Shown: one piece after another, positions 711 to 60,395 of the stretch
Numbering within the stretch: position 1 is the first letter of the stretch
Layout of the letters: each line of letters begins with the position of its first letter
Notes under the pieces: generated by a model
The model's input: the letters and a program-made list of their open reading frames with translations, nothing else
Told to the model about the DNA's origin: nothing
Databases searched by the model: none
Program-made: the position numbers and the translations under genes
DNA from: Podarcis bocagei
Taxonomy: Eukaryota
Length of the DNA: 64,000 nucleotides
Assembly (NCBI GenBank): GCA_964188305.1
Contig: OZ076888.1
Strand: one strand, 5' to 3'

Positions 711-2305
711 CATTTTGCATCGGATCACCCGCCCTCCCTCCCTTTAATAGGGGGGTATTTTATTTAAGCTGATCGCTTGACCTTGCTATGCCTGTCATGG
801 TGTCGTTCGCCTTGGTGCGGGGGCACGGTAGGAATTTTGCCATCTGGCTGATTGGCTGGTGCCATTTGGTTTTTGCCTACTGCGTAGCAAATCGTCACAA
901 CTTGTAAGGTTGGCGGTTAGGCACTGGTTAAATTGGTGCTTGGAGGGGTAAGTGCCTACCCCTCCAAATGATGCGAATGGGAATTCCGTTAAAGGAAATC
1001 CAGGGGCTTGCCATTCTTTCGTCCTTGTCCCCGGAGTCGGACTTGGGCCGTGCAAGCCCCACAGGAACATGAGGGTGAGAAGTAATGGTCTGGTGCCCAG
1101 CTTTATTTCTCACCCAATACTTGTTTCCCACGCTGGCTTCCGCTGGTATCCGGAAGGCCAGCTCTGTCCCTGAGGGCAAGGACAGATAGTCGGAACCAGT
1201 GCCTAAGCAACCACTCACATTTTTGTATTTGAATAAAGTTGTGGCCAAAATTATGCCAAAAACCTTAAACAAAAATTGATGTGTGAAGTGTGAATTATTG
1301 GGGGGCTACTGTGACTCAACACGCAAATAACTCCTACCAGAAATTTTGTCTAAAACAACAACAATCCACCTCATGCTATTTTTCCTTTTCCAGTAGCTGC
1401 CTTTTGAGCAGTACAGACCACCTGGTGACCATTTGCAAACTCAAAATAATTAGCCTTCAATTATTGCCAAGGAAATTGTCACCTGTTCTGTTTGCAAATC
1501 GCTGGCACTTTTGCCTTCCCCAATTAGTGGTGTTTACAGCCATCCCCTACTGGGTTGGAAGAGAAATAGGCAGCCTTCAAGCTAAGGAATGGTTGCTATT
1601 TACCAGTGTTTACATTCTGAATTATCCTGCTGGGATGTTTTTGAGGCACACATTGCAGTGGGTGGCCTGGAGGTGGTTTTATTACAAATGGAGAAGATAA
1701 AATTATTATTCATTCATGTCCGGGTTAGGTATACCTATCTTGTAAGTCTACAGAAATGAAATCACAAAAGCATGGGACTGCAAAGAACTGAAGGGTCATT
1801 TCGCCTAGCCCCTCTGCTTCAGGGCCCAATCAGAGAATAGTTGCATTGCAGAAAGGTGTTTTTTCTAACCAATTGTTCCAGATTTGTCTCTTATTGCTAC
1901 AACTGCTAAGAGTGCTGACATATTACACAGGCTCCACCCCTTTAAGAATAGAATGGACCTTTTCACATATTATACAGGTGCCACCCCTTTGAGAAAAGAA
2001 TGGGCCTTTTCACCTTGACTCCTGCTTTTGTAACTGCCAGCCTTGAATTTTTTAATGTCATCTAAATGGGGCTGCCCTTAAACACACCTTCAAAACCTTG
2101 ACTGCCATGGAATGAAGCAGTCCACTATTTTATGGACTGGGAGAATATATTCAGCCTGTATTATGTTAATTGCTATAGCTGCAAGCATGCTTCCAAGGCA
2201 AATTAAAATGGCTACTTTTGACCTTTAAACCCATGCATTGCCTGGAACCCAGATATCATAGTAACAGGAACCCTAGTCTGCCAGCTGTTCATGGTTGGTG
2301 TAGGC

Positions 2306-2440: not shown

Positions 2441-3864
2441 GTGTGGGCACTGAATTTGGATGAATTCTGAAAAGAAGAGGGACACCTCAGAGGTATTTTG
2501 GGGCTTGTCTGAGGTGAAGCACGATCTCAGCAAGATGGCACAATCTGAAGCAGGGACAGCTTCTTTATGCCAATTCTGCAATCCTGACATCAAAATAAGG
2601 CTGCATGCTAACAACTTCTGAAAGTGAATGTAATATCTCTAAGCATACTAAAATCCCATAAACCTGTGGGGTGGGGTGGAGAGTAGGGAGAGAGTCTGGA
2701 GGACAAGTTTCAGCATGACTAGCAAGTTTAGCTTGTAATCAGAGGGAATGATTGTACCAGCACTCTGCAATCTTAGTGCTTTGGAGAAATGAGCAGCTTT
2801 GCAATTGTGAAATTTAAGGAAGACACTGGGATGAGGTGGTCTAGTTTGTAATGAGAGGGCATGATTTTTACCTAGAAAGTGAAAGCATTTTAGTTTTTTT
2901 CCATCCCAAAATCAACTTTAGGGAAGCCTAGCACAAAAGCCTTGTGAAACCTATTTGCCCACAATTTGACAGAAGCACTTCTATCATGCCTACAATATTC
3001 TGACCAATTGCCCACAAAAAAATTGGGGGGAGGAAATTGTATTTTAGGTGTCCAGACCTAAGCCCATTGACCTAACTGCTAGTCATTTGGCATGTTTTAT
3101 CCACTCTGGAGGGGCTTCTATGCCTGCAGATTTCACCCACTTCTGTCAGCAGGAAAATTATTACAGCTGCATTTTGATTTCCCAAAAAGTGAATGAGGGA
3201 GGGGATGAAATGAAGCAGACTCACAACACTGTAATAAACCAGGCAGCTGTTTAATCAGACCGAGCAAAATTTGTGTTTGTTTTTTGTTTGGTTGGTTTTT
3301 TTTAAAAAAAATGCTGAATTGAAATTGAACCAAATATTGTGGTCAGTGCACACTCTTAGTTCTTAGCATGGTTGGTGAGCCTGAAGCAAAAGGGGAGAAT
3401 GCATGCAGGAAACCGAGGTACAGGGTGCTTTTCCCCCTTACGGCTGCTGTCCACCCTAAGCAAGGATCTATAGCTGAAGGATCAGTGTCTCGTCACCCTC
3501 CACTAGAAGCACTTACAGCAGCAGTGTGTGTGAGAGAGAAATATGGAAATGCAGGAGCAGTGGAGGAATCTTGTATCTCTTTAGGTTGGTGTGAGGGCTA
3601 GGACTCAGTAAGGAACAAAAATCCCCAAGGAATATCACAGCTGTGCTGTTCTCTGAAGCACTTTCCTGAGCTAAAGCATATTACAATCCATAAGCGGCGG
3701 AGAAGCAAAGGATGCAAGTGTTTGAGTCCTATCCCTCCCTCCACCCACCCATACAATAATTCTGAGCAAAACCTGAAATTTTTGAGGCCTTGGGTTAAGA
3801 ATTCCAAATTAATATTCTAGCAATGCTGCCCAATACAAATTACAATAGCTTCTTTAAATGGTTT

Positions 3865-4287
3865 TGTAATGTGTATGGGTTGCTCGTGCGTAAGTTGCCG
3901 CCTCTCCAGGCTTTGTTGCCTTGCTAAACCTTTCAATCTGGGCAGCCCTTCACTTCGTGGCTGCCTCAGTCGCTAGCAGAATCCGTCAGTGGGTGTTTCT
4001 TAAATCTTTTCCAACATAAAAGTTGTTTGACACCCAGTCTCCTCCTACTCTCTCTGCGTGGAAGTCTTCTGCGCAGGGTGGGCGTGGGTAGCGGAGGACC
4101 CGTGCTCTCCCCGCTGGTGTCCGGTGAAGAGTCCTGGAGCCCTCTCGCCGATTCCCCCATTAGCCCCTCTATATCCCTGGTGTTGCGCTGATTTGCTTCC
4201 CCATCTGCGGAGCTGCCTCTCTCCCTGCTGGGCCCTTCTCCAGCATCATTTGAGAGCCTTCCCTCCTCCGATGTCACTTCCCTGACA
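3865..4287 (-). mobile_element. Solo LTR (Gypsy-like) containing a conserved Arg-rich ORF
   Basis: TG...CA termini (TGTCAGGGAA...CATTACA on minus); perfect 5-bp TSD GGTTT at 3860-3864 and 4288-4292; homologous to 35696-36103. Confidence 0.85.
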
Positions 4288-6922
4288 GGTTTTACTGTGT
4301 GCATTAATATTTTTTACATGGGAGTGGCACAATTTTTACTCTCCTACAACCTTTCTTGAATTACTTTTGGTTTGTGTCTCATTCCAGGACCTGTAGCAGG
4401 TGATGGAATAAGTCTTAGTTGCTGTTCTCAAAGGTGTTAGTGTTGCTAAGGAAAATAGATGTAGCTTTCTGGCAAGCTACAAGTGGTTATTTGAATTCAC
4501 CACAGAGAAAAAATATATATCCAACTTTGAGCAGGATTAACATTGACTTTTCAAATAGTTCTGTCTCTTCAGCACTTCCCAAATCACCTCTCTAGGCCCT
4601 ACAGAGCATTATTAATGGCAGAAAATCTCATTATATGATTTTTGCTTTCCTTTTCTGACTGCTGAAGAAAGACTTTCTTAGCAGCTATAAAGGAAAAGAC
4701 TTTTGTTTTCAGGCTGAATTCCTTGTGGACTGTTCACTCAGTGATATGTAAAGATACCTAATGTATAGCGTTTCATAGCTCACAGCACATTTATTTTGTT
4801 TTATTTATTTAAAACATTTTTATACCACTCCCAAAGCAGCTATGATAATAAAAAGAAAGTCCCTGCCATCGGTTTGTAGCTGAAAAGACACAACACCAAA
4901 GAAAAAAGGATAGGGCAGGAGGAGGAAACAACTACCCAGAAACCAGTTCTTAGAGTTGCAATTCTTATAACAACTAGCTGGGATAATAATAGTTGAGGTT
5001 GGCTGATCGGATGGCCATTGTGAGGTGACCGATAAGGCAGAAGAAGAGTCACAGGTTTTTGGCTTGTCAGTGGAGTAACTGATTTTCTTCTCCCCCTCAA
5101 TTGCAGCCTGAAGGAATGGCCACCATAAATCGGGGTGGGGGGGGTATAGACCTAAAATCAAAACATTTAAATCATGATATTTTTTTTAAGAACCAAGATT
5201 TAAAAACAACAACAGCCCGATCCCATTTTGAAATCCATCTATTTCCTGAACCTATAGGCGTACTTACCAATTGATGTAACAATGAAAGCAAATTATTTAG
5301 TTTCAAATCTTTCGCATCTTTATATAATTGACCTAAACCATTGGTTGTAATTTTAAACTTCATGCAGACTGCATGTCCTGAGGAATGAGAATTATTGAGA
5401 GAAAAGACAGGTTTCTGCTTGGCTCTCATATTTGCAAGGACACCAAGCAAGATAGCAAACGCTAAAAACAGTCGGTCTAGTCTGGCAAATTAACAGGATG
5501 ATGAGATGGAGACAGATAATATATATTTGTTAAATATAATTTAAAAAAATTATTTAGCTCACTAGCAGCCGAGTTCTGTGCTGTGCTTGGCAGAGCACTG
5601 GATCATAGAATTTGCCTAAACTGAGAATAGCACATAAGGTTATAATGGTCAGTAATCACGATGGCTGTATACCACCTCCGGTATCTGTGGAAATGTGCCT
5701 ATAAATATCAGTTGTTGAAAAACGTGAGAGATCTGTTGGACTCACTGCAGCTTCTGAGCTTCACATATGCATTTGGTTGGCCCCTGCGAGGCACAGCTTT
5801 GGCAACCCATGGCTTACACGGTCGACTGGCAAGAGATAAAATAGTAAATTTATTAAAACAACGGCGGAGAAATGCCCAAGAACAAATAAGAGACAAAGCA
5901 GAAAGATGAGGAATAGAGAGAGATACCAGGCAACAAAGAAACTGAGCAATTCAGAGACTGAGCAGGAGAATACACAGATAAGCAGGAATGCATTTCAAGG
6001 TAAAGCATAGAATCTCAAGTGGAACGAGGAAAGAAAATATAACCTGTGAGAAATGGAAAGTAAAGAAATATAATCATCTTGGCATGCAGAAAAAAATTAA
6101 AGCAGATGGTAGGATTCAAAACAACAAAGGAAACTATTCCAACCTCTTAAAAAATAGAGTCTGCAGCCTTGCTTGCGTCAGATACTCATGTCCAAGTACT
6201 AACAATGACCTGAGATAGTGAGGACAGATGGCTAGCCTAGTGGCTTTTTCACCAGCAACCAAAATAGGGGATGTCAGAGCTCTGTAGCAAGCAGAATAGA
6301 AATGGCTCCATAAATCATCTGATTCCTAAGACCAGATGAATTCTGGGCTGTGGCACAATTGGTATACCTTAAATTGAATTTTGCCCCCAACCTCTGATCA
6401 GTGACCTCTGACCCAGTGCCTGGTTTAAGACCCATTGTACCTTTCCCTCCCACCAGATATCTTTATTGAAAGTTACAAAGTACATAATTATATGTGCACT
6501 AAACATGGTGAGACGTAAATAAAAGAGGGAGAAAGAAAAAGAGAAATAGCACCGGTGTAGAAGGGAAAGTAAGGGGGGGGACCCCAAAACTGTAAACTTT
6601 ACAAAGTTGTTATTCTACTTCACCTGTTACAGTATTTGTAAGAATGGATTCCAAATATCACTGAATTTGTCCATGGCAAGTCTGCATTTATATGCAAGTT
6701 GTTCATATGTTGTGAGCTTGTATTAGCCCACAAACCAATTATAGAAGGGAGCCGCACTTTTATTTTTTTTCAGTTCATCTGTATTGGTCTTTCTGCTGTG
6801 GTAAGGGCACGGAGAGTTCACTCATATTGTTCTTTTGTAAGGTTTCATGTGCTGGGTATATAATTCAAAAGGATATTTTGCTCCGTAAATGTAAGGTTGT
6901 TCTGTACAGTTCTGTTGATAGT

Positions 6923-25084: not shown

Positions 25085-25354
<270 letters not shown>

Positions 25355-26637: not shown

Positions 26638-27108
26638 TACTTTCTCAACACAGGAAAAGTTGGGGACCACTGCATTGGGCAACATGCACTGGCTTGGGAG
26701 CCCCCTGTTCTCAGATGCAGCAATCACATTTTCAAGCAAATACCTGAACAAAACATCTGTACATCTTTTCCATACTGAGGAGTTTCTCAGAAAGGGGTGT
26801 CAGGGCACAGGTGATTTGTAGGAACAGGTATTTTGCGTCCCCCCCCTTCCTGCTATTTTGCCTGAAAAACCCACTGTTTTCGACTGAATCAGAACAAATG
26901 TCAGTCCTCAGTGATGTTTGTTCTGATTCAGCAGTAATCAGCAGGTTTCCCCAGGATGGCAACAACAAACCACTCAGACCCGTGCCTAGAAATCACGGGC
27001 CTGTGCCTAAAAATAATGGCACAACCGGAAGTGGGGATGAGCCCTTGGCCTACAAATGCTCTCAGTGCATGTACAATGTGTATGAAACATTATGTAAAAA
27101 AATTTTAC

Positions 27109-27926
27109 CTTAGCAAGAGTTGGAAATACAAGTGTTTGGTAGACGATAACAATGCCAGGAACAGTGGTAGATTGGGCTTCTCCATGTAATTCTGGATTGT
27201 AGTAGATACCTTGGTTTTGAAATCTCCTATCGCTTCTTGAACTATCTGATGCTGCGTCCCAAACTGCATACATCCCATTATCTTTCAAGTTAGGAGGTAA
27301 GGATTTGGGTCTTAGATACATGTCGTTCATTATGTCTTCATCTAATGAAGTAAATGATGCTAAAGACTGACTACGATCCATTCCTAATGGATTTGGGACG
27401 TGTGCACTGGAAACATCCCTTGGAATCATTATGTCAGATCTGCAAGGATAAGGAAATTTGCCTGTTTTATCATACACTTTCTTTGAAAGTGCTGGGAAAA
27501 TGGTTTGTAACTTTTGTGCAAGTTCCTCAAAGTTGACTTTAAGGTGCTTAATAGGGTCTTCCCTGAGAAGTGGGCTAGGCTGATAAATATTAGCAATTGC
27601 ATCTTCTATTTCAACCACTAGCCCATATGCAGACTGCAGGAATGCAAGCTGGCTTTGTTCCTTTAGAGCTTCCTTAGAATACTGCATAAGGCTGTCCATC
27701 TGATCAATTCTCTTGCTTGTGTATTCGGCAAACTCGTAAAGTGCCTTCTGTTTTTGAATCTCAAGGTTTTCTACTGCCTCCATCAGCTCTTTCTCCCGTT
27801 GTTGAAGGATGCTCTGTAACCTCATGAAACCGTTCCTGATCTCCCTCCTTTTTGTTTCTTTATAGGACTTAAAATTGTTTTTTAATACAAGGACTTCCAT
27901 TAGATCATTATCAATTATAAATCGTA
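27109..27926 (-). CDS. TRIM42: TRIM42 coding exon 3 (coiled coil, COS box, start of FN3)
   Basis: tgtgtttcag|TA CGA TTT...GCT AAG|gtaaaa, phase 1/0; VRFIIDNDLME..LKNNFK..KETKRREIRNGF..L..ILQ..EK...AFLQSA...PG.VIVYQTLVFP..AK. Confidence 0.96.
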
Positions 27927-29062
27927 CTGAAACACACAAAAACAATCATTATATCACAAAAATAATCATGATATCACTGTCCATCTACTCATTCACAAAA
28001 TATAGTAAAAGTTAAAAGTGAGATAGGGTTTAATATAAGTTGACTACATTTGGCACGATCTGTATTGGAAACAGAAGCTTCACTATGGTTCAGTTCAAGA
28101 CGATAAGTTGGAGTCACATTAACCCAATGTAAACTGGGTTTGAATGTACAGCACTGTGGGAACAATTCCTCAAAGTAAATAAAAAAATTGGAAAACAATG
28201 GACAGATTTCCCACAGTGTTTTTAAATGTGAAGAGATCCACCAGGGGGTGGGGGGAGGGGGGAGCAGAGCTGTGGGTGCTATTAATGCTCTCCGTTGCTG
28301 TTTTCCCCATATATAAACTCTCTCTGTTGAAACAGTATTAGATCTGTGCATCAACACATACATTGGTCATATTCACACCATATATTTAAAGAATCCTGGA
28401 TGCTGTAGTTTAAGGGTGCTGGGAATTGTAGCTCTGTGAGGAGTGGACTACAGTCCCCAGGATCCTTTGTGGGAAAGTTAAATGATGACTGTTAAATTGG
28501 CAGAAATGTGCTATAAATGCACGGGGTGGATGTGACCATGCTTGTGTGCTTACTCTCAAAGAATAAACAGCAGCTCAGGAGTGATTACATAATGCAGAAA
28601 TCACAGGGAGGGTTAACACACTTGCAGCATTGCCCCAATCTGAGCCCTGCAGCTACATTTGCAATTTCAGAAAGGCCTTGATGAGCCCTCTACATGTGAT
28701 ACTATTAAAGTACATTCAAAGTGCTTTCCCCTTCCCTCAAAGAATTCTGGTCACTGTGGTTTGCTAAGGTGTTGCTGGGACATGTAAATTAGTGTGAGGT
28801 AAACTACAGCAACCTGAAACCTTTGAAGGAGGCAAATGTCTTTTAAAGGTATAGTGTGCATGCATCCATAGATGTCCCTACATTATGTCTATTTCACTAC
28901 TCTTTCAGTGGTTTTCAGATAAAATGTACACACAAACCTAAGATTTACACATTGTGGGTGCCATTGCACCGGTGTGTTTATAACTGCACTTTGAGACTCA
29001 TCAAAGCCTATATTACAATAACAAATCAAGCAGAAGGAAAGTAGTTAAATACAAACAGGAAC

Positions 29063-29745
29063 CTTTTTTAAACTTTGCAATAGAACCGAATAATGCAGCA
29101 GACAGTTTTGAACATGCTAGTGGCAAAGGAACTGTGTCATGATCCGTGTGGTGGGCATCAGCGCAGTATTCACAAAGCAGTTCATGGTCATCAAGACAGT
29201 ATTTTGAGATCATTGAATCACCATGGATCAAACAGTTTCTTTCTTCCCAAACTTCGTCACTGATTTTGGCATAGACATGATTTTGGTATGAAATATCCTG
29301 GTGAAAGTTCCTCAGGCAAAGATTACAGTAATTCAACTGACATGTCACACATCTCTTGGTGGCCTTCCGGCGCTCGTCACAAAGTTGGCAATAAATTGGT
29401 AGCCGGCTTCTGTCAAACCTCCACCGCAGAAAACCGTATCGGCGCATATATTTCCTGGCCAATCTGGCTCTTAGGTAATTCATCCTCAGCTGGATTTTCT
29501 TAGCAAACGGAAGGCAGTGGGCTTTGTTGCAAATGGGGCATGTGATGATGAAGAAGTTCTCTGTGATCTCAGCCTGAAGTTGGCTCTTCATTATGCACTT
29601 ATCACAAATGCAGTGATTGCATGGCAGCATAAAAGGTCGGAGAAACAGCTCTTGGCACAAAGGGCAAATAAGCTGGTCAAGAAAAGCATGTCCCGATGAT
29701 TCCTTATCCAGCGAAATGACAGATGAGTTGCTTATCAACTTGCGT
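29063..29745 (-). CDS. TRIM42: TRIM42 coding exon 2 (RING, B-box1, B-box2)
   Basis: atgctcag|A CGC...AAA G|gttcct, phase 2/1; C3HC4 RING CPLC..FMLPCNHCICDKC..ENFFIITCPIC; WRFDRS; two B-boxes. Confidence 0.97.
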
Positions 29746-29860
29746 CTGAGCATAAAAAACAACAACCAAGAAAACTTTCAGTTGTAGAGAGTGAAGCCAC
29801 CAACATTCATAATTACCCAACTTGTAATATGTCCTTATGTTATGAGTAATGCTTGGCTGT

Positions 29861-35695: not shown

Positions 35696-36103
35696 TGTGA
35701 TGGGATGATGAGCTGCTTGTGCGTAAAATCCTAGTCCCTCAGAGTTTGGTTAAGTCCGCAAACCTCTGTCTGTAACGGAGCCCCTTAAGCATGGCTCCGT
35801 CAGTCGCTGGCAGATTCCGACAGTGGTTGCTTACGGAATCTCTTCCAACATAAAAGCTCCTTAACGGAAACGCGTCTTCTGGACTCTCGGCGTGACAGTT
35901 TCCGGTGAGGAGTGGGTGTCCCTATAGGAGGTCCTGAAACCTCCCCACTGTTTTCGCTGGAAGTGTCTCTGAGCCATCCCTCCTGCTCACTTTCCCTCGG
36001 AGCTCCTCCTCTCCCCCTGCTGGTTCCCTCTTCAGCTGCTGAGTCTCTCCCAACCTCTGTGAGCCCTTCCACCTCCTGTCCTTCCGATGGCAGTTCCCTG
36101 ACA
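35696..36103 (-). mobile_element. Solo LTR (Gypsy-like), diverged relative of 3865-4287, with conserved Arg-rich ORF
   Basis: TGTCAGGGAA...CATCACA on minus; perfect 5-bp TSD CATGC at 35691-35695 and 36104-36108. Confidence 0.85.
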
Positions 36104-37811
36104 CATGCCATCCTCTTTTATATCAGTTTTGTGCCTGGCAAAGGCCTTCTTATTTTTCCAGGCCTTTTAAATTATGCTATGGGTCTTAATATTGTTTTAG
36201 CTGCATTGTTGTTGTTTCATTCCTCTGTTCCCTGCTTTTAATTTATCTGCCTTGATCTTAATTGGTGTGTTTTGTTTGCTGTGTTTTATTGTAACATGGT
36301 TTTCTAATCTTACTGTTTTACTCTGTAAGCCACCCAGATAACTTTTTGTTGTGGGACAACCTATAAATAGGATGCATGAATAAATAGTGACATTATTTCA
36401 TTAGCATTTTTGAATTAATGCAGGAACAGTATTTCAGTTTTTGCATTCCTGTTTAGTGAACTTCATACTCCAAATCAAAATACTTGGAGAGGAGTTGAAG
36501 CTTAATGCCCCCTTTCTTTGAAATCTGCATCGTGACTGCAGCTTAGGGGTAGATAATGTGTTCTGTGTACAGAAGGTACCAATTTCAATGTCTGGCATCA
36601 CTAGTTATAAAAGCTTTAGGTTGCATGTACTGTGAAAGATCTCTTCCTTAGACCCTGGACAGCCACTGCCATTTGGAATAGATAGTACCCACCCTGGCTG
36701 AAACAGCCACCTAAATAGTGGAAGTTTTTAGTGGCAGTGGTGGAACACTGATGCTTCCCTTGTCTCTCTCTTAAGTTGTCTAGCTTATCTGTTTGCTGGT
36801 TGCTCCTTCTCTCACTTGTTCTCCTGTGGGGGAAAGTGACTATGGCTGTCTCTAATCCACTGTTTCCCCACCCCAGAAGGCAATGGCAGTGGCACTATGT
36901 CAAGAGTAGTGCCATTGCCATTGCTTTCAGGGAAAAGGTTTAAAAAACCACAGGGAATCTCTATGGATAAAAACAACTCCACAGGATTCACATTCCACTG
37001 GCTGGAAGGTGACTGAACTTGCCCCTCACTACCCCTCCCCCACATGGTAACTTTGAAAATGTAAGTTCGGTGGATCCATGCAATTTGAAACCAATTTCCG
37101 AATGGTCAAATAGTTTCTTCCTTTTTTATACTTTGATTCACTTCCCACCACCAAGTTCTTCTTAAGTCAGTTGCGTAGTTCTCAGTAAAGGTCGGCTTGG
37201 CTTGCAGAACTGGTTGCATTCTGAAGCAAGGTTGACAAGCTCATAATTCTAATTAATAGTTTGTTGCTAGAGGGTGTCACTGCAATTGCCATAGGTTCAT
37301 TGAGTTTGCATGCTTTTTTATCATTGCTTTAGCACTTCTTTCAGGCATGTCTGTGGTGCCTACTTTTCCTGAGTCAGAATCATGAAATCACTAAAACTGA
37401 AGTTCAAAATCTTTCGTTGGATCTTGTGCTTTTGCACACCAAGGCCTCCTGCATAGAAACTTCTTGTAATCATTGGTGATAGAAGCTCTGTTGTGAAGAG
37501 CTTTCCCTCAGAAGGACAGATGGATGGAGGCATTTTTCTTTTCAAGTGTTTAAGGTTGCTATACCAACTAGATGTTTTATTTACTGTCATATTCATAGCT
37601 GTAACACTCCAGCTCGTCACTGAATCAAGGCTGAACTTCTGCTGCAAAGCGAGGCATGATGCCTTTTTTTTTTATTCATTCTGCATATTTAAAAATGGAA
37701 TTTAGAAGTGTCTTGTTGGCAGCTAAGTGCAGAAGAACACTGCACTGCAGGACACAATTTGAGACACAGATGTGGAAATTTGCCCTTACGGTAGGGATGG
37801 GCAAGCCTTCT

Positions 37812-40119
37812 GAAGTGCCATGGTCAGATCACTTCCTGGTGCAACTGGACTTCTCTGCGACCCATCCCCTCTGCAGGGAGGTGGGACCAATTCGGATGGT
37901 CCGCCCCCGCCACTTAAAGGATCCAAATGGTTTCCAGAGAGTGGTAGGGGATGCTTTATCCCATGTTGATGGCCTTTCAGCTGATTCCCTGGTGGCCCGC
38001 TGGAATGTGGAGTTAACCAGGGCTATTGACTGTTTGGCTCCGAAGCGCCCTCTCCGATTGCATGGAGCCCGGACAGCCCCGTGGTTTTCCACGGATCTGA
38101 GGGCAATGAAACAATCGTTGAGACGGCTAGAGCGCCGGTGGCGGATAACTCATTCCGAATCTGACCGGACACAGGTTAGAGCTCAACGTCGAGCCTACCA
38201 AGTGGCGATAGCGACGGCGAAGAAGAATTTCTTCACCGCCTCTATTGCATCTGCAGAAAACAGCAGCAGGAGACTTTTTCAGGTGGTTCACAATTTAGCG
38301 GAACCACCTGCAACATCGGGGCCCCGTACGGGCCACATGTTCTCCTGCAATGACTTTGCAAAGTTTTTTGCAGATAAAATCGCTCAGATTCGGGAAGAAG
38401 TAGATTCCACCGTGGGAGCAGGACCGGGGCGGGAGAGTGCTAGAGTTCTGTCTAGTCAAGTTGAGTGGGATCAATTCCAATCTATTACCTCCGAGGATGT
38501 GGACAGGCTGCTTGGACGAGTGAAACCAACCACCTGTCTCCTGGATCCTTGCCCATCCTGGCTTATAAAAGCTAGCCGGGAAGGACTGGGTGATGGGCTT
38601 CGTGGGGTGGTGAATGCTTCCCTCCGTGAGGAAGCCTTCCCAGACCCGCTGAAAGAGGCGGTTATTAAACCGCTTCTTAAAAAACCATCTTTAGATGCGG
38701 CCACGATGGCCAACTATCGCCCAGTCTCAAATCTTCCATTCTTGGGCAAGGTGATTGAGCGAGTGGTTGCTGAACAACTCCAGGCACGCCTGGAAGAAGC
38801 GGACCATTTGGATCCCTTCCAATCGGGATTCAGGCCTCATCATGGGACTGAAACTGCCTTGGTCGCACTGGTTGATGATCTCCGGCGGGCTAGGGACAAA
38901 GGTGAGAGCTGTTTCCTAGTTCTGCTGGATCTCTCAGCGGCATTTGATACCATCGACCATAGCATCCTTCTGGACCGTCCTGAGGGGCTGGGAGCTGGGG
39001 GCACTGTTATACAGTGGTTCCGCTCCTTCCTCCTGGGCCGTGTTCAGAAAGTGGTGGTGGGGGATGAGTGTTCAGACCCCTGGGCTCTCACTTGTGGGGT
39101 GCCTCAGGGTTCTGTCCTCTCCCCCATGCTTTTCAACATTTACATGCAGCCGCTGGGAGAGATCATCAGGAGGTTTGGGCTGGGTGTTCATCAGTATGCG
39201 GATGATACCCAGCTCTACCTCTCTTTTAAATCAGAACCAGTGAAGGCGGTGAAGGTCCTGCGTGAGTGTCTGGAGGCGGTTGGAAGATGGATGGCGGCTA
39301 ACAGATTGAGGTTGAATCCTGACAAGACAGAAGTACTGTTTTTGGGGGACAGGAGGCGGGCAGGTGTGGAGGATTCCCTGGTCCTGAATGGGGTAACTGT
39401 GCCCCTGAAGGACCAGGTGCGCAGCCTGGGAGTCATTTTGGACTCACAGCTGTCCATGGAGGCACAGGTCAAATCTGTGTCCAGGGCAGCTGTTTACCAG
39501 CTCCATCTGGTACATAGGCTGAGACCCTATCTGCCTATCTGCCAGAGTGGTGCATGCTCTGGTTATCTCCCGCTTGGACTACTGCAATGCACTCTACGTG
39601 GGGCTACCTTTGAAGGTGACTCGGAAACTACAACTAATCCAGAATGCGGCAGCTAGACTGGTGACTGGGGGCGGCCGCCGAGACCATATAACACCGGTCT
39701 TGAAAGACCTACATTGGCTCCCAGTACGTTTCCGAGCACAATTCAAAATGTTGGTGCTGACCTTTAAAGCCCTAAACGGCCTCGGTCCAGTATACCTGAA
39801 GGAGCGTCTCCACCCCCATCATTCTGCCCGGACGCTGAGGTCCAGCGCCGAGGGCCTTCTGGCGGTTCCCTCATTGCGAGAAGCCAAGCTACAGGGAACC
39901 AGGCAGAGGGCCTTCTCAGTAGTGGCGCCCGCCCTGTGGAACGCCCTTCCAGCAGATGTCAAAGCGATAAACAACTACCTGTCATTCAGAAGACATCTTA
40001 AGGCAGCCCTGTTCAGGGAAGTTTTTAACGTGTGATATTTTACTGTATTTTTGGTTTTTATGGAAGCCACCCAGAGTGGCTGGGGAGGCCCAGCCAGATG
40101 GGCGGGGTATAAATAATAA

Positions 40120-53013: not shown

Positions 53014-53824
53014 GCTTGTCGAGGTCCCCAAGACACCCCAAATAAAAACACAATAACACTTAATTTTGTTTAAGGTTTTTGACATAATTTTGGCCACAAC
53101 TTTATTCAAATTACAGCAATGTGAGTGGTTGCTTAGGCATTGGTAGCACTAACTAACCCCGCACGGGGACAGCTCTGACATTCACACACCCCGCGAAGTC
53201 AGCAAGGGTAAGTCACCTGGGGAGAGAGACGGGACTGGGAACAATGCCTCACCTCTCCCCAGAATGCTCCCAGGGGCTTGCGTGGCCCTAGCCCCTTGCC
53301 AGGGGGTTTCGGACAAAAGCATGGGGAGCCCCTGGGTTCCTTTAACGGAAAACCCTTGCAGCAGCAGCAGCATTTTGGAGGGGCAGGCACAGCCAAATCC
53401 ATACCCCTCCACCAACCAATTTCCAAACCAATGCCTAACCGCAACCTTACAAGTTTTAATGATTTGCTACGCAGTAGGCAAAAACCAAATGGCACCAGCC
53501 AATCAGCCAAATGGACAAAATTCCTACCGGGCCCCTGCCCCAAAGCAGACGACCCCATGACAGGCATAGCAAGGTCAAACAAACAGCCTAGCATTAGGGA
53601 AGGGAGGGCAGGTGATCTGAAGCACGCAGCGAAAAGAGGAAGTTTGTCGCTGCGTGCAATGTATTTAACAAATAGGGCTGTCAATCAATAAACGGCAACA
53701 TATAAATTTCCCCAGTAACAGCCCGCCCCTGCTTAAAAGATGGCCAAACCATCAACAACCAGCAACAGTGAGGTGTCTCGTCAGCCCCCACCGCAACACG
53801 TGCTCTCCATGAGGGAGAACACGC
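53014..53824 (-). mobile_element. Solo A-spacer-B remnant of a Ngaro-type element
   Basis: Collinear with 518-1324 (GCGTGTTCTCCC start, spacer, B repeat, AATAAAGTTGTGGCCAAAATTATG); no coding sequence. Confidence 0.85.
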
Positions 53825-56800
53825 TTAAACAGATAGACAAATATATTGTGTGATGGATTTCAGTTGTACCCACCCTTCACAACAGAATTATTCTGGACAT
53901 CTGGAGTCTCTGAACCTGATTCAAAATGAATCTAGTTTCTGGATCAAGGTGTCACCATGAATAGAGACTTTACAGAATTCTGACTGGATAGTTTGAAAAT
54001 AGGAAGCACAGTGTTGTTCTGACTTATGATTGAATGCATGTGAAAGAGTCATAGAACACACACACACATATGCTGATCTGTACCTCCATTCAGACAAGGG
54101 ATAGACAGTTTTGTGCAGTCAGAATAATTCAGTGACTGTGTGAACATACAACTTTACGCTGCATCTGGTGGTGGTATGAAGAATGGGAAAGGGAGGGGTT
54201 GCATTATTTTAGGATAAAGAATACCTTGCACAAGAAAAGGGATGCTTTGAGGAGGGCACTAAAGCTTTCCATGTGTAAAATGTTTTGTCTGTTGGAAATA
54301 TTCAAGCGTGGAACTCTTTCTCTTTCCTTGGTCATCTGAAATGCTACAGTCCAGGAAAAGCTTACCCATTTGATTCTGCTGAGTGTATGAACTTGGCTGT
54401 ATGCTGTGTCATATCTTCAAGCAGATCTCAACCCCCAAAATCTGGTGCTGGGTCTCCTTATAAGAGGCAAAAAAAGTATGGTAGATGCAGTGGTCTAACA
54501 CTCAAGCATATCAGATGCAATGCTCTAATATTCATTCATGCCTCTTTAATTACTTCAAAAGCAGTTGGACCAAAAATGTGTTTATAAAATGCAACACAGA
54601 GACCCATGCTATAAGCAGGTTGCCAATATTACTTCAGTGTGTAATCATAATTTGTCAATACTTGTTTTAAATGAAAACAACTTTTTAATTAAAAATATCT
54701 GACTGCCTGACAATATGTATTGGAAAAATGTAAATAATGTATACAAATTGTTAAGTGCAGGGATAAAGTATATGTGAGTGTTTGTACATATATAATTTTC
54801 TAGGCTATTTTCAGTAAGGAACTGAATGCAGTTTATAAGAAGAAAAATAAACATTGCACAAACCTGAGCATTCCACATACAAATTACTTTGAGTGCTTGC
54901 ATCACCTCAGTTTGTGAACTATTTGTATTGCAAGTAAATCTAATAGCAATAAAACGAGACAGGTGTCTTTCTGTCTTCTTAAATGAATAAATAAAATAGG
55001 CAAGCAACAACAGTGGCATCACACTGTTAAGGCACAGATGTGTTTAGCAATTAATAACATAAACACCAATAGCTCTCAGTGATGTAGTGTTATGATTTAA
55101 AAATAGCAGACTTCATTTATATGACAGGCAAGGAAGTGTCCCTTAAAAAATGCTTCTCTGAGTTACAAATGATAATGTTGCTTAATGCATCTGATCACTC
55201 CGAGGATGATAGGAGCATTTTAGGACTTCTGATTACTCCTAGGATGATAATAGTAAATCCATGATTCTTGGCACATCATGAGCTTAGACCCCGCAAAGCT
55301 ATGTGGATTTGCTATGGAGTCTTGCGCACTAGGAGACATAACCTGTAGAGACTTTACTGGCATGTTCCTAGGTTGTCTCATATGACATCAGGCATGGAAG
55401 TGTTCGAGCCATGGGTGTAAAGGAAATTGTAGTTGTGGCTTGAATTTTTAATAATTTTAGTGCAAACATCTCCCAATACACTCCTTTTTATATTACATTT
55501 TTGCAAGCAAAGTCCCCTAATATAAAGCATTATATGTTATTTTCACTAATATATGGATTACTATGTACATTTTCCCCAACACACATCTTTTTGTTCACAT
55601 TATTTGGTTGGAGAACTGTATCACACTTATGAAAGTCAAAGGATAATTTGCACTTCAATTCACATATTGTTTCAGGAAGTTTGAATTACAAATGCGAACT
55701 GAACCCAATTTCTCTCCCATCCCTATTACTGTCATTTCTCTTCTCTCTTTCCCAAAGTCAACCTGCCCACTTTATTTTGGGGAGTGGGAAGGTAGAGGCA
55801 GATGTGACCCCCACACACCTGCCATAGTGCATTTTCATTCCAAGAACTGGCACAGGAACTACAAGCCCCGGGATCCTCAGTGGGAAACCAACACCCACTG
55901 TTGTTGTTTTTCTTTGAGAAGATGTCAGTGTTAATTTCCTGTTCTATTCTAGAGTTTGCAGTTCCACTCCTTGGTGAGAAAAGATGGTCCTGCAGGTATA
56001 CAGGGAAACCCACTGCTGCTGAGTGAGCTTCTTCTACATAATCCTTCTTCAAAATAAGCTTGGAGCCAGCAGCAGTGATGGCAGGTGCTGCCAGGTTATT
56101 TCAAGTATTTGAATCAAACATTCAACAAGCCTCTTGAGGAAAGTTCTCATCCCTAGTCTTTCTCCCTCTCTCCCTTAAAGTCTAACAGACTCCCACTTAC
56201 ATCTCTTTTCCTTCCCCACCTTAGGATGAAGCCTAAGCCCTCTTCAACTCATGGATATTCCATTAGTCCTCGGGAAATTACTTTAGCTTCCTCAGAATGC
56301 AGATAGATGCTTCAAGTTACCAGGCTTTGGTGTTTTCGTCAACGTTCAAAGTCACTTTGAATTGGCGATGGATTATTACTGTATATTTGTGAATCTATGT
56401 GTCAAAGATTCCATATAGGAGAAAGGCAAAACACTATCCAGTAGAATAATAAGATGTGATAGAGCACTGTGAAGAGGATGATTGATTGAATGGAGAACGA
56501 CACAGAGACAGAAAGATGTAGCACTCTGAGAAGTGGAGACAAATGCAAAAGAAAATGGAATATATTAAGGGGAAGAACAACATAATTAGAACAATACCAT
56601 GTGATAAGAACTTAAATTTTCATATTGCTTTCCACTCCTGACCTCTTTGCAAACACCTCAAAGAGAACCCATCACTCACTCCTAGAATTCAGTAATCTCT
56701 AAGGTGAAGGCGAGGGGGAAACACAGGCTACGGAAATGTTGTAAAGTGAGGTAAGGTGAGGTGGGGGACTGAAAGGAAAGGATTATATGCAGAGGGAAAA

Positions 56801-59799
56801 GGACACAACTTAATACCTAATACGAGAGTAAATGTCCAAGCCCTTCATTTTAATAAGTAAATGGATAAGGTAGGTAAACATGTGACAGTCTACTGCATGA
56901 GATAAAAGACAGCTAAAGCTTCAGGGAACAATGTATTTCACAAGGACTGCCAACCCTCTGCCCAAACCAGTTTTATATCCTACATTCATAATTTTGAAGC
57001 ATGGCAAATTGATAGAACAACTGTAAAGACAAAACATTATGAAGACTTTTTTTGGGAGAGAGATATGAAAAACTCTGGTGTAAAACCTATTGAATTTCAC
57101 AGGATGTGCTTCTGAGCAGACATGATTGGGATTGCAGTATTAATTTCTGCTGCTGGTTTTGCTATTTGAATTTTATTTAGATTTGTCTCTTGATTTATTA
57201 TACTCAACACTGTTTTGTTGCATTAGTTTATTTTAAGATATTGTAATCTGCCATGAGCAAGAATTTTGCCTAGAAAGGTGGGGTATTTACATTTTAATAT
57301 AAATGTGCACATATTCAGTAGCGCCTTCTCATTAGTGACTGCAGCCTAGTTCTCAAAATATCCAGTCACTTAAAGGCAACATTGAGGATCCCTCTCCACC
57401 TCCAAAAGTAAATAATTATAAATGCATGTTTGCACTAAGCGGTACAAGTAAATATTCAACACATGTAGGTACAAAACAGTGGTGCTTCAGACTGATCTGC
57501 TTTGTGTCCAGTTCAGATCTTACTGCATATAAAATTGTGCTAAGACAATATGAATAGCTTTGATGGATGAGGCTGGTGGTGATCGCTATATATGCAACAG
57601 ATGTAGATAATAGATGTTATTATGTTCAAGAACACAGTGCATGGAAGTATCCTATGAAATGTTGTTCACAGGCTCGTTTTGGCATTCTGTATTCCATCAC
57701 CCACAATTATAGTTATTGATATTCTAACCCTCCATTAGTTAGACTAGATATCCTATTGACCTTTTATGGACCAGCTCACAATTTATCACCACTGAAATAC
57801 AAGCTGTAGAAACCCCCCCTCCCCTTTTGCAACTCTAGAACATTATAAATGAGTCTATTTCCTGTATAAGTCTTATTTAATAGTAAAAAAAGCTTAGACT
57901 CATCCATCTGCTGTCAGTGATACCGGAAGTATGGACATGAATTATGACCTCTTGTGGATGACCCTGAAATCTTCAGATATCGGCTAGCTGGAGATTTATA
58001 GCTGTTTTGTTCATGCATTTTATAATTTAGTAACACCAATAATTCTCTTTTATCTGAAATGAGGCATATAGTGCCTCCAGCCCACTTCATCCCTGCTTCT
58101 ACTGCAAATGTTGCAGGGTGCTAATAATTAAGTATATAACAGCCCTTTTTTACTTAGAGAATCTCTTACATTAAGGAAGCATCACTTATTTTATAGAATA
58201 ACATATCCATAGACATGAAATGTGTCTTATTTTAGACCAAAATGTTACCATGAAACCTCAAAGAGCAGACGCCATAGTGTCCCTTATTTTAAACTAACTC
58301 CCCACAGCATTAGGAAAAAGGTTTTTCTGTTTTCTGAGAATAATAATAATAATTCATTTTATTTCTATACTGCAGTGGAACTTGTGCATTGATGCATCTA
58401 ATTTTCTTTTTCCAATTTTCATGCATTTAAACCCCACCTTTCTTCTGTCATGGAGTCCAAGGTGCTATACATGTGGTTTCAAGGCAGTTACCCATCAAGG
58501 CACTGACCATGCTGTTATTTTATGCCATTAGCCTGCTTTGTACAAGCTAAACTGTGGCTTAAGCATGTTCTCCCTAAATGAGAGCATGTGTTGCGGTTGG
58601 GGAATACAGGCCACCCTGGTGTGATTGGGCAAGTTGGATAACCCAGGCCTTAAGTGGTTAACTGGGTTACTGGGGAGTTTTGTATGTTGCCAATTCGGAG
58701 GAGGGGTTTGGAGCCTTTAAATACAGGTCGCCATTGCTGGGCGTCCTCTTGGCCTTTTTGCACCGGATCACATGGAGCACTGGGACAATCTTCTCATTGT
58801 CTGGTTACATTTCTTTATTTCTTTATTTCCCCTTTCTTTTTAATCCTCTCTAGTCCCTTAAATAATTTAATTCCCCCCTTTTCCTGTTCAATTTCCCACC
58901 CCACCCCTTACCCTGCCCTGTGGGAAGATTCTCCCTGTATCTGTGGCTTGCCTTTACCAATAGTGAGAGAGCCCCCGTTAGGGGCTTTCTTTCGCAAAAA
59001 GGTTTCCCCCATTTCTCTTGTTGAAATTGTGGGGCTAGTCAGGGCTGTTCCCAGCTTAGCTGGTATCACTTTCGTTTATAGTATCCCCGAAGGTTGGCTT
59101 TATGGCTCCCTGTGCCTCCAAGGACTATGAGCACTCTGTATATGCTCTTGAACTATGCTGTTTCTGAACAAGTTTATTTTCTTTAAGTTTGTTTTGCCCT
59201 GATAGTGGCGACTGCCATTTTAGAGATGAGCCATTGTGGCTTGGTGGCTAAAGTGTAGGACTAGGACCTGGGAGACAGGGTTCATATACCCCTCTTAGCC
59301 ATTGTTATAACAAAACAAAACAAACTGCCCCTTATGGGCTATTCTGTTGCTGGGTAGTTCGGCCCATTTGTGATAAAAGAACTTTGGGTTTCTTGAAGGG
59401 GTGCTTCCCTCTAAAAGGGAAGCAGGGGTACCTGGACAAGCTGTGGGCTACCTCAACTCTGCTATTTCAGTGGAAACATTTATGCCTGGCCTAGCAGGTG
59501 ATCCTAGGGCTTTGCCCTAGAATTCTATGGCCTGGAAGCGTTTCCGGCCTCAATAGTGTCCCCATGTGGTCCATGAAGCATTGGTTTCACTGGGTCAGTG
59601 GATAGTGCCGGTAATGCCTAGGTTGCAGGATTGGTCCCTGTATGGGACAGCTGCATGCTCCCCCATTGCTCTACCTGGACACTTAAGTCCTTTTGGTGGT
59701 TACCTCACTGCGAGGGATGTAACGGGCGCCATGTTTGCAATATGCAACTGGGAGAAAGCACCTTTGCGTGCCCGCATTGCAGTTTGCTCTGTGCGTTGC

Positions 59800-60395
59800 A
59801 GAGCACGGCGCTGCACGGGCTGCAATTGCATTGCATTGCTAGGAGATTTGCAGTTGCATTGCACGGAGGGTGTGTGCATTGCATGGAGGGTGTGTGTGCA
59901 TTGCATGGAGGGTGTGTGTGCATTGCACGGAGGGTGTGCAGTGCACGGAGGGTGTAGTTGCATTGCATGGAGTGTAGTTGCATTGCATGAAGGGTGTGTG
60001 CATTGCAGGGAGTGTGTAGTTGCATTGCATGGAGGGTGTAGTTGTATTGCACAGAGTGGTTTTTTTTTTTGTTTGCATTGCCCGGAGTGTGTGTGCATTG
60101 CACGGAGTATGTAGTTGCATTGAACAGAGGGTGTGCAGTGCACGGAGTGTGTAGTTGCATTGCATGGAGTGTAGTTGCATTGAATGAAAGGTGTGTGCAT
60201 TGCAGGGAGTGTGTTTTGCATTGCACGGAGTGTGTAGTTGCATTGCACGGAGGGTTTGTGTGTGCATTGCATGGAGTGTGTAGTTGCATTGCACAGAGCG
60301 TGCTTTTTGCATTGCACGGAGTGTGTAGTTGCATTGCATGGAGAGTGTGTGCACTGCACGGAGTGTGGTTTTTTTTTGCATTGCACAGAGTGTGT
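59800..60395. repeat. Minisatellite of ~20-22-bp units TGCATTGCA(C/T)GGAGTGTGTAGT inside the Ngaro gag region
   Basis: Read directly; produces long overlapping low-complexity Cys/His ORFs on both strands. Confidence 0.92.

Follow-up and report, generated by a model that had tools for sequence, protein, structure and literature searches.

HIV Nef and MMTV Sag are encoded by separate genes that overlap U3, with a start of their own and a spliced RNA. In the plant CRM group A chromoviruses it is the polyprotein that crosses the polypurine tract and continues within the 3' LTR, which encodes a conserved C-terminal motif of integrase (PMC3059260), and some Reina chromoviruses have a polyprotein that likewise enters the 3' LTR (PMC3605345). 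The Tf1/sushi chromoviruses (Metaviridae, V-clade; Sushi-ichi and Amn) have a zinc-knuckle Ty3-type gag, the order PR-RT-RH-IN, an SH3_Tf2-1 domain followed by a chromodomain, and 5-bp target site duplications (TSDs), and the group is self-priming in place of using a tRNA primer (available parts of PMC6317226 and PMC4600332).

The lizard element described here shares all of these features with the Tf1/sushi group. It differs in having an additional tail of 180-210 residues, half of it LTR-encoded, and in the loss of the third cage residue of its chromodomain. Its closest match in the PDB is Ty3 Gag-Pol. As in CRM group A, the polyprotein extends into the 3' LTR, but CRM group A has a tRNA-Met primer and a CR motif instead of a chromodomain, whereas the lizard element has a self-primer and keeps its chromodomain upstream. 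Because it self-primes and keeps the chromodomain, it is not a member of CRM group A, and the likeness in layout, which sets the motifs side by side by description only, is likely convergent. A reading of the same DNA made from its letters only (hereafter the sequence-only reading) had called LTR-encoded proteins unusual for simple LTR retrotransposons. This was overstated, since an extension of Pol into the 3' LTR is established for CRM group A (PMC3059260) and some Reina elements (PMC3605345), and the lizard architecture is therefore of a known kind. A literature search that reached few subscription papers, with Repbase outside it, returned no report of such a tail in a vertebrate chromovirus.

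The stretch of Podarcis bocagei DNA that was analyzed (the window, 64,000 nucleotides) contains two solo LTRs with different TSDs (Table 1). Both have a frame that is open to a stop, over 106 and 100 residues, and that takes up 76% of LTR 1 and 74% of LTR 2. The sequence-only reading had described these frames, at about 75% of the LTR, although the coordinates that it gave are those of the first copy only. Its account of the codons also holds. Those quoted for RRESRRR are present in the sequence, and no ATG is common to the two frames (LTR 1 has one internal ATG, LTR 2 none). It had reported identical residues with different codons and an excess of synonymous change; over the last 57 codons, 37 residues are common to both copies and 19 of them are differently coded, pS is 0.70 and pN 0.23, and the differences at codon positions 1, 2 and 3 number 17, 11 and 31. 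Pfam searches with both LTR peptides gave no match above the cut-off. A TRIM-like gene on the same strand has its RING exon about 6 kb downstream of LTR 2.

Table 1. Positions of the two solo LTRs, of the features within them and of neighboring features in the window.
Feature	Position	Strand	Remarks
Solo LTR 1	3865..4287	minus	423 bp, TG..CA; TSD AAACC, 5 bp, at 3860-3864 and 4288-4292; full-length relative is L091
Frame in LTR 1	3966..4286	minus	Last 106 codons of Pol/integrase and stop
Basic Cys-Trp motif, LTR 1	3996..4073	minus	Residues 72-97; predicted bipartite NLS, conserved hydrophobic linker
11-nt self-primer, LTR 1	3980..3990	minus	Pairs with the primer-binding site in full-length copies; overlaps L-T-D-S codons
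Solo LTR 2	35696..36103	minus	408 bp, TG..CA; TSD GCATG; subfamily other than that of LTR 1, with 3' junction seen in L039 and L041
Frame in LTR 2	35800..36102	minus	Last 100 codons of Pol and stop
Basic Cys-Trp motif, LTR 2	35830..35904	minus	Residues 67-91
11-nt self-primer, LTR 2	35814..35824	minus	Variant matching the primer-binding site of L096, L106 and L190
TRIM-like host gene exons	29016-29777, 27010-27945, 25085-25354	minus	RING and B-box, coiled-coil-like exon, FN3
673-codon frame	37635-39653	plus	Reverse transcriptase domain; probably LINE
300-nt exact direct repeat	101-400, 911-1210		810 nt apart; another repeat family
Copies related to the 300-nt repeat	53064-53826, 58561-58707		Inverted and direct
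Degenerate tandem array	59831-60391		20-22-nt unit

The family is large, with 3220 first-look candidates in the genome. Of these, 40 were scored and 30 loci were fetched on the basis of DNA similarity; all 30 keep the frame to the same stop, and inspection shows an exact TSD of 5 bp at 29.

The frame is the C-terminal end of Pol, whose reading frame continues past the polypurine tract and enters the 3' LTR. A pattern for the polypurine-tract/LTR junction has 1638 matches in the genome, and its reversed control has one. D|V-R-E is read in register at all 30 junctions fetched; the whole fetched flank of 504 codons is open in 22 of these and the terminal stop is reached in 28. Patterns for other LTR starts gave 10 matches versus 2 for controls, and a further pattern gave 0. 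One match of a protein search lies within a frame of 520 codons and has a second LTR at a distance of 5.7 kb; this locus is a full-length element. Both LTRs were found in 12 of the 13 elements examined and are 93.6-100% identical to one another. A single unbroken pol frame of 1328-1353 codons ends inside the 3' LTR in five of the 13; pol is interrupted by stops or frameshifts in the remaining ones.

In these elements gag is followed by pol in a different frame. Pfam identifies a Ty3-type gag and, along the pol frame, protease, reverse transcriptase, RNase H, integrase, SH3_Tf2-1 and Chromo domains, the last (PF00385, E 1.5e-11) at residues 1095-1144 of 1328. The gag and PR-RT-RH-IN order, the TG..CA LTRs, the TSD, the polypurine tract and the chromodomain at the C-terminus of integrase are those of a Ty3/Gypsy chromovirus, and on sequence grounds both LTRs of the window are assigned to an abundant, young one of the Tf1/sushi type. 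The tail after the chromodomain is about 180-210 residues long, its second half (the last ~100) being LTR-encoded. It consists, in order, of about 80-100 acidic residues, the codons of the polypurine tract, an LTR-encoded linker of variable length and a basic Cys-Trp motif. Podarcis muralis Pol proteins in UniRef end in the same tail, which carries no name there, and named homologues were found only in Podarcis in protein database searches of limited sensitivity. An ESM Atlas query with chromodomain and tail returned only chromodomain clusters (0.79-0.83) and nothing for the tail. Contigs of four sequencing runs, which have no recorded RNA label, cover 28-30 of the element's 30 bins. No splice-like joint was listed for run X1; that X1 is RNA is a guess, and the run is not used as evidence.

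The sequence-only reading had placed the start of the frame in the internal region missing from solo LTRs and had offered two origins for it, a C-terminal extension of Pol through the polypurine tract or an accessory protein comparable to Nef and Sag. Recovery of full-length elements, a check that it had proposed, identifies the upstream in-frame ORF as pol, which crosses the junction into the LTR and so bears out the first origin. A Nef- or Sag-like product would be a separate U3-encoded protein, translated from spliced RNA or cut from Pol. Arg-rich disordered peptides resemble retroviral regulatory proteins. The LTR-encoded peptide is of this kind, its coding sequence lies within U3 as do those of Nef and Sag, and release from Pol by proteolysis is possible. 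However, the lizard frame is the end of pol and continuous with it, rather than a unit with its own start or splice acceptor. No stop or change of frame separates it from integrase, the two copies share no ATG, and the copy in the 5' LTR lies upstream of the probable RNA start. A separate accessory protein is therefore a very improbable source of the frame.

The site at which a tRNA primes is expected to begin with TGG. The sequence following the 5' LTR lacks this initial TGG and is the complement of 11 nt within the LTR. This pair of primer and primer-binding site is found in 15 of 21 loci, 12 at 11/11 and three at 10/11; the script found no pair in the other six. There are six perfect primer variants, each matched by its own primer-binding site, and non-identical variants cross-pair at only 3-10 of 11 positions. 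The complementarity points to self-priming as in the Tf1/sushi group, in place of a tRNA primer. It places the RNA start 26 nt past the Cys codon and about 22 nt ahead of the stop, so that the self-primer would mark the U3/R border and U3 would be wholly coding. The stop codon would then lie in R, and a 5' or solo LTR would not express the peptide. The 3' LTR in genomic RNA would be the sole source of the tail, which would make solo LTRs silent remnants; the frame in LTR 1 of the window is presumably such a non-coding remnant.

What appeared to be an accessory gene is better described as a triple use of one stretch of DNA, as LTR promoter region, as integrase tail and as self-primer, and the self-primer allows the U3/R border to be located without RNA data. 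The frame shares its first codons with the att site and its last ones with the self-primer. A TTTTATG in the window copies was considered as a TATA box and rejected, because its bases vary with synonymous codons. LTRs of the young clade (L091-L106, L185, L192) have neither AATAAA nor ATTAAA; divergent subfamilies (L147-L176, L180) have AATAAA.

Comparison of dN/dS across subfamilies, also proposed by the sequence-only reading, indicates purifying selection, with 0.38 (0.28-0.49) for all LTR codons. The estimate uses 11 subfamily representatives of 17, from 35 distinct unbroken tails, in 55 pairs that are not independent; L136, which has a local double frameshift, and five divergent representatives whose linkers do not align were left out. 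By region, dN/dS is 0.13 in the chromodomain, 0.23 in the acidic part before the LTR, 0.43 in the Ser/Pro part, 0.65 (0.46-0.96) in the LTR linker and 0.12 (0.07-0.26) in the basic Cys-Trp motif, where shifted frames give 1.6-1.75. Selection is real but local. Since the linker is nearly neutral, a large share of what the LTR encodes may be a passenger, with an open frame as its one requirement; the linker, free in sequence and length, must nevertheless stay open so that the terminal motif gets read. Its length varies without frameshift, as had been noted from the two copies. All eight lengths common to at least two sequences are multiples of 3 (183 to 327 nt), and the frame is kept in 103 of the 106 LTRs with an anchor, from 130 loci, or in 79 of 82 once the set picked by protein similarity is left aside.

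Post-insertion changes, counted between the 5' and the 3' LTR in each of 15 elements, comprise 17 synonymous and 37 non-synonymous ones, a near-neutral ratio of 0.86. Private changes among 29 solo LTRs give 0.46 (14 synonymous, 16 non-synonymous), where a neutral control is expected near 1; source-lineage changes inherited by the solo LTRs may explain this value. Because of it, the 5'-versus-3' LTR comparison is the cleaner control.

Conservation might instead act on DNA or RNA, through promoter, att site and self-primer, with the open frame as a by-product of purine-rich sequence. This is true of the ends of the frame, where att site and self-primer overlap its codons, and the linker both evolves almost neutrally and is flat by codon position in a frame-blind DNA alignment. 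Within the motif, however, the same alignment gives 0.26/0.15/0.47 at codon positions 1/2/3. Third positions vary like the non-coding DNA past the stop (flat at 0.43, one of the 11 rows being non-homologous there), whereas second positions are conserved. The stretch from primer to end gives 0.16/0.09/0.36. Other subfamilies have CTTCTTTGC in place of TTTTATG and encode the same residues, the shared length classes are all in frame, and the other frames are stop-free in only 0, 0, 0, 1 and 5 of 17 representatives. Conservation of DNA or RNA is thus already largely refuted, and we give it hardly any weight as the source of the open frame. Selection on the basic Cys-Trp motif acts, we are confident, at the level of protein, which matters for the dating and classification of these LTRs.

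A classical bipartite nuclear localization signal (NLS) has two basic residues, a linker of 10-12 residues and at least three basic residues among five. The motif at the end of the tail has the layout basic-x-hydrophobic-Cys-Trp-basic and is kept in subfamilies that are only about 30% identical. Its Cys-Trp is invariant in 21 of 21 aligned tails, some of them 30-34% identical to the first, and the motif is also kept in a relative, P0127, at 48%. The bipartite pattern is present in 14 of 17 representatives and missed by three, versus 24% of shuffles, a rate that shows how easily it is matched in Arg-rich sequence; when tails are not cut at Cys-Trp+8 it is present in 34 of 35. An Arg-rich NLS had been suggested by the sequence-only reading, and the motif fits one. 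It is probably an NLS and would take the integration complex into the nucleus. The reading of the frame as the final 100-125 residues of the Pol polyprotein, likely ending integrase in an NLS, is given a probability of about 0.7.

The tail as a whole is predicted to be disordered, with short helices, by a low-confidence model (pLDDT 57.9, pTM 0.16). An LDSSP-like stretch, which we take to resemble the Sir4-binding motif of Ty5, was rejected as such a motif, because it is not conserved.

A C-terminal bipartite NLS with a conserved linker is also found in Ty1 integrase, where, according to excerpts of PMC7459421, linker residues bind the host factor AC40. Ty1 is a Copia-type element and its partner is AC40 of Pol III, whereas the lizard element is Ty3/Gypsy and its predicted NLS has a Cys-Trp linker without a known partner. 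The Ty1 case would also fit a tail in which the main ligand of the Cys-Trp motif is not importin but nucleic acid, a host targeting factor or a membrane lipid anchor. An NLS linker needs neither an invariant Cys-Trp nor a hydrophobic helix face, and the low-confidence model places a helix at residues 161-171. In 14 of the 17 representatives, however, the linker has a basic cluster on either side at the spacing of an NLS, and binding and NLS roles are compatible. A mainly non-importin role for the motif is unlikely, and an NLS is preferred.

Between the chromodomain and the polypurine tract lie two motifs of the form Phe-(8-9 acidic residues)-FxGF, whose residues are conserved with mixed synonymous codons among the 17 representatives. 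The anchor Phe is present in 17/17 and 16/17 in the two motifs. The FxGF of motif 2 has Phe in 17/17, Gly in 17/17 and Phe in 16/17; motif 1 has FxGF in 10, LxGF in five (the youngest subfamily), IxGF in one, and is lost in one. This arrangement matches the TIM/IBM of LEDGF/HRP2 partners (JPO2, IWS1, KMT2A, PogZ, DPF3a), which combines a hydrophobic anchor, an acidic Ser/Thr linker of 8-9 residues and FxGF in a tandem pair; none of the known partners of LEDGF and HRP2 can do without FxGF (PMC9987994). The DPF3a peptide LFGSTSESDTSTFHGF has the same layout as the lizard motifs (PMC7337902, in excerpt), and the IBM consensus is given as S/ExFxGF in the available parts of PMC7337902 and 10.1101/624023. 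FxGF past an acidic Ser/Thr linker of 8-16 residues is found at motif 2 in 16 of 17 representatives. A TIM also has a short anchoring helix ahead of the linker; the low-confidence model described above has a helix there for motif 2 only, at residues 39-45. A PDB search with the FxGF region gave five weak matches (E 0.18-0.91) and no solved TIM peptide.

The TIMs described in the available text of PMC9987994 and PMC7337902 are those of host proteins, whereas the putative lizard motifs lie in the tail of an integrase. Lentiviruses bind LEDGF through integrase itself, and the lizard element would do so through putative FxGF motifs in its tail. The literature that was searched, with few subscription papers reached, held neither a TIM/FxGF motif in a retrotransposon integrase nor LEDGF mimicry by a retrotransposon. 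Both LEDGF-domain loci are present in the host genome, and the host PSIP1 exon is 99% identical to that of Podarcis muralis.

The cage positions of the chromodomain were located by pattern and by what we take to be the HP1 alignment. Of 42 distinct chromodomains fetched, 40 have Glu or Ala as the third cage residue, and these are all 40 copies of the tailed lineage; the other two have an F-W-Y cage and are from a family that ends immediately behind the chromodomain. A Type I chromodomain has all three aromatic cage residues (PMC3059260, in its available text), and with the third lost the lizard chromodomain is not of this type. The youngest subfamily has Tyr at the first cage position (six rows). 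Among the top 150 protein relatives the chromodomain pattern is present in 139, and the third residue is aromatic in 134 of those. One of the 134 has an acidic FxGF-like match, apparently in a fused gene model, and an acidic FxGF tail is present in three of the five relatives without the third aromatic residue. These three are one lineage and therefore represent one evolutionary event, not a correlation. In a sister family from Podarcis (P0134, P0135) the chromodomain is more degenerate and the conserved Trp is lost; P0134 has FQGF after the chromodomain.

From their sequence, the FxGF motifs have about an even chance of binding LEDGF/HRP2. They would bind its integrase-binding domain and so replace the degenerate chromodomain as chromatin tether. 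More tentatively, and with the odds somewhat against it, the lineage may have swapped a methyl-lysine-reading chromodomain for a disordered, TIM-mimicking tail that tethers it to LEDGF/p75 or HRP2 and directs integration into active gene bodies; the end of that tail serving nuclear entry would be encoded across promoter and self-primer. The 150 LTR-peptide matches are spread at 0.16 per Mb over three smaller contigs versus 0.09 over two large ones (P 0.046), a contrast chosen post hoc among eight contigs of known length and too slight to be evidence of gene-body targeting. Binding of the FxGF motifs to LEDGF or HRP2 would mean that a retrotransposon uses the same host tether as HIV, reached differently. 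If the tether is true, the element would be a natural high-copy test of a switch in integration targeting, with a caged, tail-less family in the same genome; more than 1600 junction-bearing copies provide insertion sites for comparison.

Other features of the elements and of the genome were also observed. The gag/pol overlap of older subfamilies has a GGGAAA(C/T) slippery-type site, which presumably resembles the PEG10 site, and a downstream inverted repeat; the youngest have GGTAAAA there (L091 and L099 compared with L095, L096 and L098). Contig C19 (96.5 Mb; L117-L146, L185, L187) holds most of the top SH3_Tf2-1 matches, many with equal scores, and only one of the 150 LTR-peptide matches. 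Two 4.1-kb copies, L185 and L187, share their TSD, which shows that segments have been duplicated, and C19 is likely the non-recombining W chromosome. P0133, a RefSeq model named vomeronasal type-2 receptor 26-like, starts with fragments of gag and pol of the lizard element and is probably an annotation fusion.
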